A DNA stretch of 64,000 bases. Source: Escherichia coli. Lineage in GTDB: Bacteria; Pseudomonadota; Gammaproteobacteria; Enterobacterales; Enterobacteriaceae. Positions 1-58,669 of the stretch are shown in pieces. How positions within the stretch are numbered: position 1 is the stretch's first letter; each line of letters begins with the position of its first letter. The notes beneath the pieces were generated by a model, which worked only from the letters and a program-made list of their open reading frames with translations, ran no database searches and was not told the origin of the DNA. Made by a program: the position numbers and the translations under genes. Location of the stretch: NCBI RefSeq assembly GCF_030384885.1, contig NZ_CP128613.1; one strand, 5' to 3'.

Positions 1-3306
<3,306 letters not shown>

Positions 3307-3479
3307 TACTTACCCGCAGAAATCATTCTGCGGGTATTAAGTTACTTTCTTATAAATTAATACAGATTAATCCTGGTTATTTGCTTTATTTATCACCAGT
3401 CATCCGGTATAGTTCTTCATAATCTCTGCAAAATCATCATGTTGTAATATTCTCTCATCACTCTCCATCAAATTTTCTT

Positions 3480-3497
3480 TTTTTCTCCATAATTGGC
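3480..3497 (+). promoter_or_regulatory. BaeR response-regulator box in the spy promoter
   Basis: TTTTTCTCCATAATTGGC matches the BaeR consensus as I recall it (TTTTTCTCCATDATTGGC), about 140 bp upstream of the spy start. Confidence 0.5.
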
Positions 3498-3635
3498 GCA
3501 AAAGTGTTTTTTACACTTTCATTGTTTTACCGTTGCTCTGATTAATTGACGCTAAAATCAGTAAAGTTAATCTCGTCAACACGGCACGCTACTTAAGAAA
3601 GCCGTAATAAATAACTGAAAGGAAGGATATAGAAT

Positions 3636-4121
3636 ATGCGTAAATTAACTGCACTGTTTGTTGCCTCTACCCTGGCTCTTGGCGCGGCTAACCTGGCCCA
3701 TGCCGCAGACACCACTACCGCAGCACCGGCTGACGCGAAGCCGATGATGCACCACAAAGGCAAGTTCGGTCCGCATCAAGACATGATGTTCAAAGACCTG
3801 AACCTGACCGACGCGCAGAAACAGCAGATTCGCGAAATCATGAAAGGCCAGCGTGACCAGATGAAACGTCCGCCGCTGGAAGAACGTCGCGCAATGCATG
3901 ACATCATTGCCAGCTATACCTTCGATAAAGCAAAAGCTGAAGCGCAGATCGCAAAAATGGAAGAACAGCGCAAAGCTAATATGCTGGCGCACATGGAAAC
4001 CCAGAACAAAATTTACAACATCCTGACGCCGGAACAGAAAAAGCAATTTAATGCTAATTTTGAGAAGCGTCTGACAGAACGTCCAGCGGCAAAAGGTAAA
4101 ATGCCTGCAACTGCTGAATAA
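3636..4121 (+). CDS. spy: Periplasmic ATP-independent chaperone Spy
   Basis: 161-aa ORF with signal peptide (MRKLTALFVASTLALGAANLAHA) and repeated LTxxQ motifs (LNLTDAQKQQI, LTPEQKKQF). Confidence 0.93.
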   Translation: MRKLTALFVASTLALGAANLAHAADTTTAAPADAKPMMHHKGKFGPHQDMMFKDLNLTDAQKQQIREIMKGQRDQMKRPPLEERRAMHDIIASYTFDKAKAEAQIAKMEEQRKANMLAHMETQNKIYNILTPEQKKQFNANFEKRLTERPAAKGKMPATAE

Positions 4122-5844: not shown

Positions 5845-5931
5845 ACGCCTGTCAGGCCTATTCGACTCCTGCAATGTATTGAATTTGCATAGTTTTGTAG
5901 GTCGAATAAGGCGTTCACGCCGCATCCGGCG
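5845..5931. repeat. REP/BIME-like repetitive extragenic palindromic element
   Basis: tgtaggtcgaataaggcgttcacgccgcatccggcg (5896..5931) resembles the E. coli REP consensus; a second degenerate copy (acgcctgtcaggcctattcga) lies about 50 bp upstream. Confidence 0.5.
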
Positions 5932-15636: not shown

Positions 15637-15912
15637 GGATTACGTACCTCCCGGTTTTGCCGGGAGTTACATGGCCTGAAATTTTGTATTTCATTGCTAC
15701 ATTCATTCAAACCACCTGTAACAAAAAGCTGCCTTTGACGATCTATTGCTATAAATAAGTGATCTTTTTTCTTTAATTGTTTATTTATTTTAAAATGGTT
15801 AAGTTTTGCTAATCATGATGAGCTATTTTTGATAGTTCATCCTGTGGCGTCGCTCTTAAACTTATATTGTAAATGACTTAGATTTAAATGAGATAATAAT
15901 TTTGTTAACAAT

Positions 15913-16728
15913 ATGAGGCGGGAGATGTTTTCTACAAACTTAATACAGAGTAATTATGGTGATTTAAATATTAAAAGCCTGGCTTTCGACTCTTTTAAAG
16001 AAAGGCTGCAGTCTACTATGACAGCACTCACTTTCTTTATATCAACGGGGCAATGTGACTGCGATGAAATAGCAGAATCAAACTTTAATTATATGATTGC
16101 CTATATGTCTAACATTAACTATGATGCCTCAAAGCCAGGAGCGCCAGCACTTAGTTTTGATACATATCTGCAGGACAATGTTAAATATAGAGTAATAATT
16201 AATAATCTTTATGGTAGTGAAATTCGGATAAGAGGTATAAATAAAGATTTTATTGGAATGGATGTCGCTTCTGTATTTCGCCCAGAAAAGATGACCAATT
16301 TGATCAATATAAAAAACAGGTTGGTTATTCACTATTTAAGGACTATATACTATGAACAAAATTATATACATCCTGCCGGGAGTATTTTTTCTGCAATTCA
16401 AAAAAATGAGAGTCTCCTAAAGTTTCCTTCGGTAATATCAATGCTTAATGTCAATCTTCTTTTTAATCCACTGAATCTTCCGGGAATGGGAAGTGGTGTG
16501 CTTGAAGAGATTATGAGTATTTCAGATAGTTCACTTAGAAAACGTCTTGGGTATGAGGTTTTAAGCTTCTCGCTACAAGCACATTCATTGAGTCAGGAAT
16601 GTATTGATAAGTTAGCCATTTTTTTCGCTGACGATCTGTTTAAATATGAGTCAGTATGCATCGCCGCGATGGAACATTTAAAAAGTAAGGCAACGGCCCC
16701 TATACAAAACGGACCGTTGCCAGCATAA
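15913..16728 (+). CDS. ydjO: Uncharacterized protein YdjO (AT-rich)
   Basis: 271-aa ORF (a second in-frame ATG at 15925 would give 267 aa); strongly AT-rich with AT-rich upstream region. Confidence 0.8.
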   Translation: MRREMFSTNLIQSNYGDLNIKSLAFDSFKERLQSTMTALTFFISTGQCDCDEIAESNFNYMIAYMSNINYDASKPGAPALSFDTYLQDNVKYRVIINNLYGSEIRIRGINKDFIGMDVASVFRPEKMTNLINIKNRLVIHYLRTIYYEQNYIHPAGSIFSAIQKNESLLKFPSVISMLNVNLLFNPLNLPGMGSGVLEEIMSISDSSLRKRLGYEVLSFSLQAHSLSQECIDKLAIFFADDLFKYESVCIAAMEHLKSKATAPIQNGPLPA

Positions 16729-29690: not shown

Positions 29691-29774
29691 TCAACGCCAT
29701 CAAAACATTGACTTTTATCGCCGTAGCCTTTTCAATAAAGGTCTTTTGAAAAGTACCAAAAGGTAACGCAAGCA

Positions 29775-29819
29775 ATGAATGCTGCTATTTTCCGCTTCTT
29801 TTTTTACTTTAGCACCTGA
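29775..29819 (+). CDS. pheM: pheST attenuator leader peptide (14 aa, 5 Phe)
   Basis: atgaatgctgctattttccgcttctttttttactttagcacctga encodes [14 protein letters not shown]; too short for the ORF track. Confidence 0.85.
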
Positions 29820-29867
29820 CTCCAGGAGGCTAGCGCGTGAGAAGAGAAACGGAAAACAGCGCCTGAA

Positions 29868-29891
29868 AGCCTCCCAGTGGAGGCTTTTTTT
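29868..29891 (+). terminator. pheST attenuator terminator
   Basis: Hairpin agcctcc-cagt-ggaggct followed by a 7-T run, 50 nt downstream of the pheM stop. Confidence 0.75.
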
Positions 29892-30060
29892 GTATGCGCG
29901 TTTTGAAAAATAAAAAGCCTGTCTCATCAGGCGTAATTGTCGCAGCCAGTCTGGGCACGGCCAGCGCGGAGAAACCGGAGCGTACTTAAGTACGTGAGGA
30001 TTTCGAGCACTGCCCGGGACCAAAATGGCAAGTAAAATAGCCTGATGGGATAGGCTCTAA

Positions 30061-33492: not shown

Positions 33493-33792
33493 ATGGCGCT
33501 TACAAAAGCTGAAATGTCAGAATATCTGTTTGATAAGCTTGGGCTTAGCAAGCGGGATGCCAAAGAACTGGTTGAACTGTTTTTCGAAGAGATCCGTCGA
33601 GCTCTGGAAAACGGCGAACAGGTGAAACTCTCTGGTTTTGGTAACTTCGATCTGCGTGATAAGAATCAACGCCCGGGACGTAACCCGAAAACGGGCGAGG
33701 ATATTCCCATTACAGCACGGCGCGTGGTGACCTTCAGACCCGGGCAGAAGTTAAAAAGCCGGGTCGAAAACGCTTCGCCCAAAGACGAGTAA
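33493..33792 (+). CDS. ihfA: Integration host factor alpha subunit
   Basis: 99-aa [60 protein letters not shown] (HU/IHF fold). Confidence 0.95.
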
Positions 33793-33809
33793 TCTGATCT
33801 AACTAAAAA

Positions 33810-33835
33810 GGCCGCTCTGCGGCCTTTTTTCTTTT
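33810..33835 (+). terminator. Rho-independent terminator of ihfA
   Basis: ggccgc-tct-gcggcc hairpin followed by ttttttctttt. Confidence 0.75.
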
Positions 33836-33892
33836 CACTGTCGAAGAGTCACCGTAAAATCAACGCCATGACACTTCAGCAGAACGGATACC

Positions 33893-34932: not shown

Positions 34933-35484
34933 ATGCAAGATTCCATTCTGACGACCGTAGTGAAAGATATCGACGGTGAAGTGGCCACGCTGGAGAAGTA
35001 CGCCGGTAATGTGCTGTTGATTGTCAATGTCGCCTCAAAGTGTGGCTTAACGCCGCAATATGAGCAGTTGGAGAATATTCAGAAAGCCTGGGCCGATCGT
35101 GGTTTTGTGGTGTTGGGATTCCCGTGCAACCAGTTTCTGGAGCAAGAACCGGGCAGCGATGAAGAGATTAAAACTTACTGCACCACTACCTGGGGGGTGA
35201 CGTTCCCGATGTTCAGTAAGATTGAAGTTAATGGCGAAGGACGCCATCCGCTGTATCAAAAATTGATTGCCGCAGCGCCGACGGCAGTCGCGCCGGAAGA
35301 GAGCGGATTCTATGCCCGTATGGTCAGCAAAGGTCGTGCACCGCTGTACCCTGATGATATTTTATGGAATTTTGAGAAATTTTTAGTTGGCAGGGACGGA
35401 TTGGTCATCCAGCGTTTTTCCCCGGATATGACGCCGGAAGATCCCATTGTGATGGAAAGCATTAAACTGGCGTTGGCGAAATAA
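34933..35484 (+). CDS. btuE: Glutathione peroxidase-family protein BtuE
   Basis: 183-aa ORF with GPx motifs ([25 protein letters not shown]). Confidence 0.9.
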
Positions 35485-36233
35485 TGTCTATTGTGATGCA
35501 GCTACAGGATGTTGCGGAATCAACCCGCCTTGGGCCGCTTTCTGGCGAGGTTCGGGCTGGGGAGATCCTGCATCTGGTGGGGCCGAATGGCGCGGGTAAG
35601 AGTACCTTACTGGCGCGAATGGCCGGAATGACCAGCGGTAAGGGAAGCATTCAGTTCGCGGGGCAACCACTGGAAGCATGGTCCGCAACAAAACTCGCGC
35701 TGCATCGCGCCTATCTTTCACAACAACAGACGCCACCGTTTGCAATGCCGGTCTGGCACTACCTGACACTGCATCAGCACGATAAAACGCGTACCGAACT
35801 ACTGAATGATGTCGCAGGGGCGCTGGCTCTTGATGACAAACTCGGACGTAGCACCAATCAACTTTCCGGCGGCGAATGGCAACGCGTACGTCTTGCTGCG
35901 GTGGTGCTGCAAATCACACCACAAGCCAATCCCGCAGGCCAATTACTACTTCTTGATGAGCCTATGAACAGTCTTGATGTTGCGCAACAAAGTGCGTTAG
36001 ACAAAATTCTGAGCGCGCTGTGTCAGCAAGGACTGGCGATTGTTATGAGCAGTCACGATCTCAACCACACCTTGCGTCATGCGCATCGGGCGTGGTTGCT
36101 AAAAGGTGGAAAAATGCTGGCCAGTGGACGCAGAGAAGAGGTGCTCACGCCGCCAAATCTGGCGCAGGCCTATGGGATGAATTTTCGCCGTCTGGATATC
36201 GAAGGTCACAGAATGCTGATTTCGACCATCTGA
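35484..36233 (+). CDS. btuD: Vitamin B12 ABC transporter ATP-binding protein
   Basis: 249-aa ORF with Walker A (GPNGAGKST) and ABC signature ([12 protein letters not shown]); start overlaps the btuE stop (ATAATG). Confidence 0.93.
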
Positions 36234-36310
36234 TTTCATTAGTATCTTGAAAATCGGGTAATTACGACGCTAAATTAATGCAAGAATAAAAAACAGAGGA
36301 ACCGTACGGA

Positions 36311-36775
36311 ATGCGTTTCTGCCTTATTTTGATCACAGCACTGTTTCTGGCCGGGTGTAGCCACCATAAAGCACCGCCGCCAAATGCCAGACTTTCTGAT
36401 TCGATTACCGTTATTGCCGGTTTGAACGACCAGCTACAGAGCTGGCATGGCACGCCGTATCGTTATGGTGGCATGACGCGGCGCGGTGTGGACTGTTCGG
36501 GGTTTGTGGTTGTGACGATGCGCGATCGTTTCGATTTGCAGCTGCCCCGTGAAACCAAACAACAAGCCTCTATCGGCACGCAAATTGATAAAGACGAGTT
36601 GCTGCCTGGTGACCTGGTCTTTTTCAAAACGGGCTCCGGACAAAATGGTTTGCATGTAGGTATTTACGATACCAACAACCAATTTATCCACGCCTCTACC
36701 AGCAAGGGAGTGATGCGTTCCTCACTCGATAATGTCTATTGGCAGAAAAATTTCTGGCAGGCGAGACGAATCTAG
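36311..36775 (+). CDS. nlpC: NlpC/P60-family lipoprotein (peptidoglycan endopeptidase)
   Basis: 154-aa ORF with lipobox (LFLAGCS) and catalytic Cys context (GVDCSGFV). Confidence 0.9.
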   Translation: MRFCLILITALFLAGCSHHKAPPPNARLSDSITVIAGLNDQLQSWHGTPYRYGGMTRRGVDCSGFVVVTMRDRFDLQLPRETKQQASIGTQIDKDELLPGDLVFFKTGSGQNGLHVGIYDTNNQFIHASTSKGVMRSSLDNVYWQKNFWQARRI

Positions 36776-37021
36776 TATGTCGAAAAATGGACGGCGATGA
36801 TACATCTCCGTCCATTTACTCCTGAATACAGTAGTATTTTACAGACAAAAATACCGTATATGGATTATTCGTTTATAATCAGGATAATCTAATAAAAGGA
36901 CCCCTGAAAAAGTGGTTAACATGGAACAAATGAAAGTTACTCCTTCTGTAATTGTTATGTCTTATGGCCTCATCCCTTTTAGCCGGATACTGAAAAACAT
37001 CCTTCGAGAGGGACGGTTACC

Positions 37022-37735
37022 ATGAAGATTTTTTTGGAGAATCTTTATCGTTCTGATTGCTATTTCCTGCCGATAAGAGATAACCAGCAAGACCTTGTCG
37101 GCGTTGAGTTAATTACCCATTTCTCCAGTGAAGATGGTACGGTTCGTATACCGACGAGTCGGGTTATAGCGCAACTTACCGAGGAGCAACATTGGCAATT
37201 ATTTTCTGAGCAGTTGGAATTGCTAAAATCATGCCAACACTTTTTTATTCAACATAAACTCTTTGCCTGGCTTAATTTAACCCCACAAGTGGCTACTTTA
37301 TTATTAGACAGGGATAATTACGCGGGCGAACTATTAAAATATCCGTTTATTGAACTGTTGATTAATGAGAATTACCCGCATCTCGATGAAGGAAAAGATA
37401 ATCGCGATCTTTTGTCCTTATCGCAAATGTATCCCCTTGTGTTAGGTAATTTGGGCGCAGGCAATAGCACAATGAAAGCGGTTTTTGATGGTCTTTTCAC
37501 CCGCGTCATGCTGGATAAAAGTTTTATTCAGCAACAAATCACGCATCGCTCCTTCGAACCGTTTATTCGTGCGCTCCAGGCGCAAATTTCCCCATGTTGC
37601 AATTGCATCATCGCGGGGGGCATTGATACGCCAGAAATAATGGCACAGATTACCCCCTTTGATTTCCATGCTCTCCAGGGATGCCTGTGGCCTGCCGTTC
37701 CTGTAAATCAGATAACGACGTTGGTTCAGCGATAA
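37022..37735 (+). CDS. ydiV: Anti-FlhD4C2 factor YdiV (degenerate EAL domain)
   Basis: 237-aa ORF; the canonical EAL motif position reads ELI (DLVGVELITHF); AT-rich gene. Confidence 0.85.
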   Translation: MKIFLENLYRSDCYFLPIRDNQQDLVGVELITHFSSEDGTVRIPTSRVIAQLTEEQHWQLFSEQLELLKSCQHFFIQHKLFAWLNLTPQVATLLLDRDNYAGELLKYPFIELLINENYPHLDEGKDNRDLLSLSQMYPLVLGNLGAGNSTMKAVFDGLFTRVMLDKSFIQQQITHRSFEPFIRALQAQISPCCNCIIAGGIDTPEIMAQITPFDFHALQGCLWPAVPVNQITTLVQR

Positions 37736-37758
37736 CCCTCCTGTTTGCTGGTGTTTAA

Positions 37759-39234
<1,476 letters not shown>

Positions 39235-58426: not shown

Positions 58427-58564
58427 CGTGTAATGGCTGCATGAAATAAACAATAAAATATAAATAACATTATCAGCCTGCTGACGGCTTGAAGAGAGTC
58501 ACAGTATCTTGTGCAACATTATTGGAAAGAGTGAGGGGCGAGGTAGCGAAGCGGAAAAATGTTA

Positions 58565-58669
58565 AAAAAAAGCCCATCGTGGGAGATGGGCAAAGACTAC
58601 ACACAGCAATTCGTTGTTTCACTCAGGGGATTTCCATGCTTATAAATCAATATGTTGATTTATAACCGT
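58565..58669 (-). ncRNA. rprA: Small regulatory RNA RprA (RpoS translational activator)
   Basis: Reverse complement matches the RprA sequence as I recall it (ACGGTTATAAATCAACATATTGATTTATAAGCATGG...CCCATCTCCCACGATGGGCTTTTTTT), with a 3' terminator hairpin (cccatctcccacgatggg) and U-run; no ORF. Confidence 0.8.

Follow-up and report, generated by a model that had tools for sequence, protein, structure and literature searches.

An intact ydiV gene of Escherichia coli encoding a degenerate EAL-domain protein with a preserved FlhD-binding surface

The open reading frame at positions 37022–37735 encodes a protein with the layout of an EAL domain, and the question that it raises is whether the product still acts on c-di-GMP or whether it acts through contact with another protein. 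A second question is why the gene and the spacer upstream of it are AT-rich. An earlier note on this DNA had named the gene ydiV, which is also known as rflP or cdgR. Here, the window is the whole stretch of DNA that was analysed, at its full length of 64,000 nt. The gene and its upstream region are placed as follows.

36776–37021, + strand: spacer between nlpC and ydiV, 246 bp, presumed to hold the ydiV promoter and 5′ UTR
37022–37735, + strand: ydiV (rflP) coding sequence, intact, identified from the open reading frame list, the PDB matches and the RefSeq coding sequence

The frame begins with ATG and is full length, with 237 codons for 237 amino acids. The best PDB matches of the product were 3TLQ_A (free E. 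coli YdiV) and 4ES4_A (the YdiV–FlhD complex), both covering all 237 residues with E = 6e-156. The next match after the YdiV entries was STM1697 from Salmonella (5HXG, E = 4.8e-22), and the active EAL enzymes DosP and RocR were reached only at E values of 0.02 to 1. The spacer and ydiV were 100% identical to the same segment in E. coli 2013C-4282 (RefSeq accession number NZ_CP027579.1), where nlpC, ydiV and selO are annotated at exactly matching coordinates and the coding sequence is recorded as 'ydiV: anti-FlhDC factor'. The upstream neighbour, nlpC (Pfam NLPC_P60, 119.5 bits), ends at 36775, so that the spacer length of 246 bp given in the earlier note was exact, and the downstream neighbour, selO (1026.6 bits to the NCBIfam SelO equivalog, for which the cutoff is 900), starts at 37798, 62 bp beyond ydiV. 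NCBIfam contains no model specific for YdiV, and the sole match to that collection was to the PdeH equivalog, whose cutoff of 190 lies far above the 50 bits scored.

Of 5426 complete E. coli genomes, all but four (5422) contain the locus, where the gene is annotated as anti-FlhDC factor, and the gene order btuD-nlpC-ydiV-selO-hemP-aroH is kept in Salmonella, Escherichia fergusonii and one divergent Escherichia lineage. In the E. fergusonii locus (bases 480–2213 of the extract), btuC is followed directly by btuD and the glutathione peroxidase gene btuE is absent; btuE is present in the E. coli and Salmonella loci. Both by its sequence and by its position, the gene is therefore an orthologue of the characterised ydiV. 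It is a known gene, for which structures have been solved and a mechanism is established, and its identity as ydiV with an EAL layout, as first read from the open reading frame, was borne out by the RefSeq annotation, the structural matches and the Pfam match described below.

The Pfam EAL family (PF00563) matched YdiV over aa 13–222, corresponding to profile positions 15–232 of 236, with E = 3.5e-8 and a score of 33.5 bits, just above the gathering score of 31.3. The protein thus belongs to the family with the full layout and a weak score, and the predicted domain is complete in layout and highly diverged in sequence. As the product is 96% identical to the 3TLQ and 4ES4 chains, it has the TIM-barrel-like EAL fold, and the solved YdiV fold is superposable on that of TBD1265.

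The residues of the EAL signature were scored in two MAFFT alignments. The first compared YdiV with the EAL domains of PdeH, PdeL and PdeK from the MG1655 record, and to the second were added the EAL domains of MucR (5M1T), MorA (4RNI) and 5M3C, taken from PDB alignments, together with STM1697. A profile of 22 members of the YdiV family was also compared, using hhalign, with a profile of six canonical EAL enzymes; the match had a probability of 98.7% over 205 columns, and its column mapping agreed with that of the MAFFT alignments. The signature positions are listed here.

37097–37123, + strand: VGVELITHF, aa 26–34, read from the translation of the frame
37106–37114, + strand: E29-L30-I31 at the position of the EAL motif; E29, the metal ligand, is kept (alignments, hhalign)
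37118–37120, + strand: H33 at the position of the R of EALxR, a phosphate contact, which is lost (alignments)
aa 85: N85 at the position of the N of SVNxS, a metal ligand, which is kept (alignments, hhalign)
37355–37369, + strand: LLINE, L112–E116, replacing xExxE; the first E of ExxE, a metal ligand, is lost to L113 and the second is kept as E116 (alignment column by column, hhalign)
37445–37462, + strand: GNLGAG, aa 142–147, replacing DDFGTG; both metal-binding aspartates are lost, DD becoming G142 and N143 (alignments, hhalign, codons read)
37508–37510, + strand: M163, codon ATG, at the position of the catalytic K of KxD, which is lost (alignments, hhalign)
37616–37627, + strand: GGID, aa 199–202, replacing EGVE; the catalytic or general-base E is lost to G199 and the last E to D202 (alignments, hhalign)
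aa 219: Q219 at the position of the Q of QG, which is kept (alignments, hhalign)

Of the ten signature residues scored, six have been replaced, among them the DD pair, the K of KxD and the catalytic E of EGVE. The ten are the positions visible in our own alignments, and this list differs from the published ten, which accounts for the difference from the eight of ten catalytic residues reported as not preserved by Li et al. 2012, who found no binding of c-di-GMP and no activity. The catalytic and metal-binding residues are thus clearly not all intact when YdiV is set against active EAL enzymes, and the loss of phosphodiesterase activity that had been proposed for this protein is what the replaced residues would predict and agrees with the literature.

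The reason first given for that loss fared less well. The ELI within VGVELITHF, in place of EAL, had been read as consistent with inactivity, and the motif is indeed present. However, the active enzymes vary after the E of EAL, with ELL in PdeH and EVL in PdeL and PdeK, and E29 itself is kept, so ELI is not diagnostic of inactivity. The same caution applies to H33, which is not decisive when taken by itself, as PdeH is active and has V at the position of the EALxR arginine. Read from the alignments, the real lesions are the change of DDFGTG to GNLGAG, of EGVE to GGID, of the catalytic K to M163, of the metal-ligand E to L113 and of the R to H33.

The surface that contacts FlhD is located here.

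37484–37597, + strand: FlhD-binding surface, aa 155–192, helices α6–α8, placed from the contacts in PMC3510510 and the translation

The crystal structure of the YdiV–FlhD complex (PMC3510510) identified F155, F168, H175, E179, F181, R183 and Q188 as contacts, with A184 also conserved. All seven contacts are present in the window protein, as is A184, and the only change in the aa 155–192 surface and α8 relative to the K-12-like allele is I185L, at a position occupied by I, L or M in the orthologues. Among 22 orthologues with 41–96% identity, F155, F168, S177, F178, P180 and F181 were invariant, while the catalytic-equivalent positions 33, 113, 142 and 163 varied freely. Positions 29 and 85, which are kept here, also varied: some genera have S, T or D at the first of these and Y, K or T at the second. 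The invariance of the FlhD patch next to the variability of the catalytic positions indicates that selection maintains the FlhD-binding patch rather than the active site.

We are therefore highly confident that YdiV is a stand-alone protein with an EAL fold that has lost the hydrolysis and binding of c-di-GMP and serves as a flagellar brake through contact with FlhD4C2. In this mechanism YdiV would act by protein–protein contact and not through c-di-GMP, with helices α6–α8 binding FlhD within FlhD4C2, the master activator of the flagellar genes. Binding would block the attachment of FlhD4C2 to DNA or strip it from DNA, and the complex may then be handed to ClpXP for degradation, as shown in Salmonella, where YdiV targets FlhD4C2 to that protease. 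[quoted passage not shown] No dimerisation via α8 has been reported for YdiV, in which α8 binds FlhD instead.

Binding of FlhD4C2 and repression of class II genes have been demonstrated with YdiV from K-12, CFT073 and Salmonella. [quoted passage not shown] A second role has been described in E. coli, in which YdiV together with SlyD inactivates Fur under iron starvation. The anti-FlhD4C2 role ascribed to the gene at the outset is thus well founded in the literature on YdiV, and the seven retained contacts are consistent with it for the protein encoded here. We infer that this allele behaves like the characterised YdiV.

The closest known system is YdiV of E. coli K-12 (3TLQ, 4ES4), which is encoded at the same locus, has the same 237 aa, and is identical at all of the degenerate signature positions and FlhD contacts; it differs by ten substitutions and by 3.6% of nucleotides in the gene. 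YdiV/RflP of Salmonella (STM1344), the protein with which both the anti-FlhD4C2 function and the targeting to ClpXP were demonstrated, is an orthologue in the same slot with the same degenerate pattern and the invariant F155, F168 and F181, but is only 51.5% identical. STM1697 (5HXG) of Salmonella is likewise a stand-alone degenerate EAL-like protein that acts on FlhD4C2, and it shares ELxxHF and GxLGxGN with YdiV. It is, however, a paralogue and not an orthologue, and keeps the lysine and one aspartate (VKLD and GDLGVG). In PMC5622320, STM1697 is described as working by a different mechanism, restricting recruitment of RNA polymerase and not DNA binding.

The ten substitutions relative to the K-12-like allele are H10R, V24D, E96D, N122D, G129D, V136M, I185L, A204P, L207M and I228V. 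Only 310 of the 5422 genomes have a segment at least 99% identical at the nucleotide level to the spacer and ydiV of the window. The surrounding region from 34933 to 39234 also differs from the K-12-like genome, by 1.5–3.8% of nucleotides, with 3.8% and five amino-acid changes in btuE and 2.4% and 16 amino-acid changes in selO, and only 232–496 of about 5420 genomes were at least 99% identical to this neighbourhood. The small number of such genomes means that the strain belongs to a minority lineage at the ydiV locus.

Relative to the K-12-like allele, dN/dS was 0.16 for ydiV, 0.25 for selO, 0.05 for nlpC and 0.015 for aroH, which indicates that ydiV has been under purifying selection, although of a looser kind than nlpC or aroH. 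Over longer distances, using the loci of Salmonella, E. fergusonii and divergent Escherichia (with ydiV at bases 3001–3714 in each extract), YdiV was the fastest-diverging protein of the syntenic block. It is 48.1% identical to the E. fergusonii protein and 51.5% to that of Salmonella, compared with 80–92% for BtuD, NlpC, SelO and AroH, and the E. fergusonii YdiV was nearest to that of Citrobacter amalonaticus (57%) rather than to that of E. coli (48%). Lineage-specific adaptive change outside the FlhD patch, or replacement of alleles by recombination, or else a small ligand bound in the retained groove, may be considered, tentatively and as an unlikely reading. If true, adaptive change or recombination would tune the shut-off of flagella in each species or pathotype.

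Fast divergence could also be the sign of a gene that is decaying in E. coli under relaxed constraint, with little function left. Truncated or frameshifted ydiV products are indeed numerous in public E. coli data. They were seen in large clusters (P0011, P0020, P0026, P0044 and P0050), and examples include a frameshift after G200 (463 members), unrelated residues after F178 (242) and a stop after residue 130 (349), which suggests that ydiV has been lost recurrently in some lineages. In addition, K-12 is reported to make hardly any YdiV when grown in the laboratory. Against this, the copy in the window is full length, its dN/dS is well below 1 and lower than that of selO, the FlhD interface does not vary among genera, and deletion of the gene has phenotypes in both CFT073 and MG1655. 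Decay is therefore an unlikely account of the gene, and a functional YdiV that brakes flagella through FlhD remains the preferred one.

The AT-richness of the gene and spacer relative to nlpC and selO, also pointed out in the earlier note, was confirmed by the GC contents, which were 0.429 for ydiV (GC3 0.437) and 0.374 for the spacer, against 0.503 for nlpC, 0.525 for selO and 0.492 for the window. Among all 59 genes annotated in the window, ydiV had the fifth lowest GC content (z = −1.66), after ydjO, espL1, chbR and ydiP, and that of the spacer was the ninth lowest of 32 intergenic regions, for which the median was 0.414. The AT-richness of ydiV is thus real but moderate, and the spacer is ordinary for an intergenic region.

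Two of the genes with a lower GC content were also noted. The lowest of all 59 was that of ydjO (15925–16728, + strand), at 0.351 with a GC3 of 0.306, well below ydiV, and the spacer between cedA and ydjO (15637–15924) had a GC content of 0.326. The type III secretion effector gene espL1 (24055–25953, − strand), which lies between yniD and thrS, was the second lowest of the 59 at 0.394. It resembles a small insert gained by horizontal transfer, and its presence suggests an attaching-effacing or STEC-type strain background.

A recent foreign origin of ydiV, with silencing by H-NS, would explain the low GC content of both the gene and the spacer, and in Salmonella the ydiV promoter is bound and silenced by H-NS, with CadC counteracting it (PMC9728131). 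The orthologous loci do not fit a recent import. In Salmonella, E. fergusonii and divergent Escherichia, ydiV occupies the same syntenic slot and is the gene with the lowest GC content of the block (0.405–0.465), and as low GC is common to the orthologous loci examined it is an old property of the gene and no local anomaly; nearly all of the E. coli genomes searched carry it. The promoters also differ. [quoted passage not shown] Silencing by H-NS was accordingly rejected as the cause of the AT-richness of ydiV in E. coli, given the lack of gel-shift binding and the low GC content at all of the orthologous loci, and recent acquisition of the gene is very unlikely.

Two features of the spacer bear on how the gene is expressed.

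36785–36817, + strand: stable hairpin directly after the nlpC stop codon, with a weak U tract, from RNA folding
37006–37013, + strand: Shine–Dalgarno-like sequence GAGAGGGA, 8 nt before the ATG, read from the sequence

The hairpin had a folding energy of −21.2 kcal/mol (z = −4.78), and none of 200 shuffled sequences was as stable. It is probably the nlpC terminator, separating the transcription of nlpC from that of ydiV, and if so ydiV has a promoter of its own. In a scan of 36600–37900 for the sigma-70 consensus and for terminators, no promoter-like site fell within the spacer, and the total number of sites in the scanned region was no higher than in shuffled sequence. Relative to the K-12-like allele the spacer contains five differences, all at or upstream of 36893, while the 128 nt that lead up to the ATG are unchanged.

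In the minimum-energy fold of 36940–37070, GAGAGGGA pairs with UCCCUUUU at 36973–36980 and a second hairpin encloses the AUG. Such predicted masking of the Shine–Dalgarno sequence agrees with the idea, attributed to Wada 2012, that translation of ydiV in K-12 is occluded by structure in the leader, but the fold was no better than those of shuffled sequences (z = −0.35). A consensus fold of five leaders was uninformative, as the E. fergusonii and Salmonella leaders could not be aligned. We therefore do not claim a leader structure that occludes the Shine–Dalgarno sequence.

A search of the whole window with Rfam at the gathering threshold found no family in the spacer or in ydiV. Elsewhere in the window, matches above the gathering score were the RprA small RNA (58562–58669, − strand), the Phe leader (29769–29893, + strand), STnc540 (33734–33892, + strand), which extends across the 3′ end of ihfA and the region upstream of btuC, and ES036 (5854–5896, − strand).

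The comparison with enzymes and receptors that handle c-di-GMP bears directly on the question posed at the start. The active EAL phosphodiesterases PdeH/YhjH, PdeL/YahA, MorA and MucR share a homologous fold with YdiV over about 205 columns, but are only about 16–21% identical to it, in addition to the differences in the signature. LapD and FimX resemble YdiV in that a catalytically dead EAL domain has been repurposed for signalling; unlike YdiV, which consists of the EAL domain only and is a reported non-binder, they are multidomain proteins that still bind c-di-GMP. That YdiV is still a phosphodiesterase, or a receptor of the LapD or FimX type that binds c-di-GMP without cleaving it, is scarcely credible. 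In its favour are the retained fold with its marginal Pfam score, the four retained residues (E29, N85, E116 and Q219) and the groove with phosphate and glycerol that persists in 3TLQ. Against it, the two aspartates and one of the glutamates that bind metal have been replaced, as have the arginine that binds phosphate and the lysine and glutamate of catalysis, and E29 and N85 are themselves not conserved among the orthologues. In published work, moreover, YdiV neither hydrolyses nor binds c-di-GMP, and the motility phenotype of the ydiV deletion in CFT073 is not complemented by an active phosphodiesterase supplied exogenously.

YdiV, read here as a regulator that acts on FlhD4C2, is a textbook example of regulation by what was once an enzyme fold. 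It links the building of flagella to signals from nutrients, iron and the host and so affects motility, visibility to the immune system and virulence. The strain examined here has an intact and less common allele in which the FlhD-binding surface is preserved, and the known picture of YdiV is unchanged.
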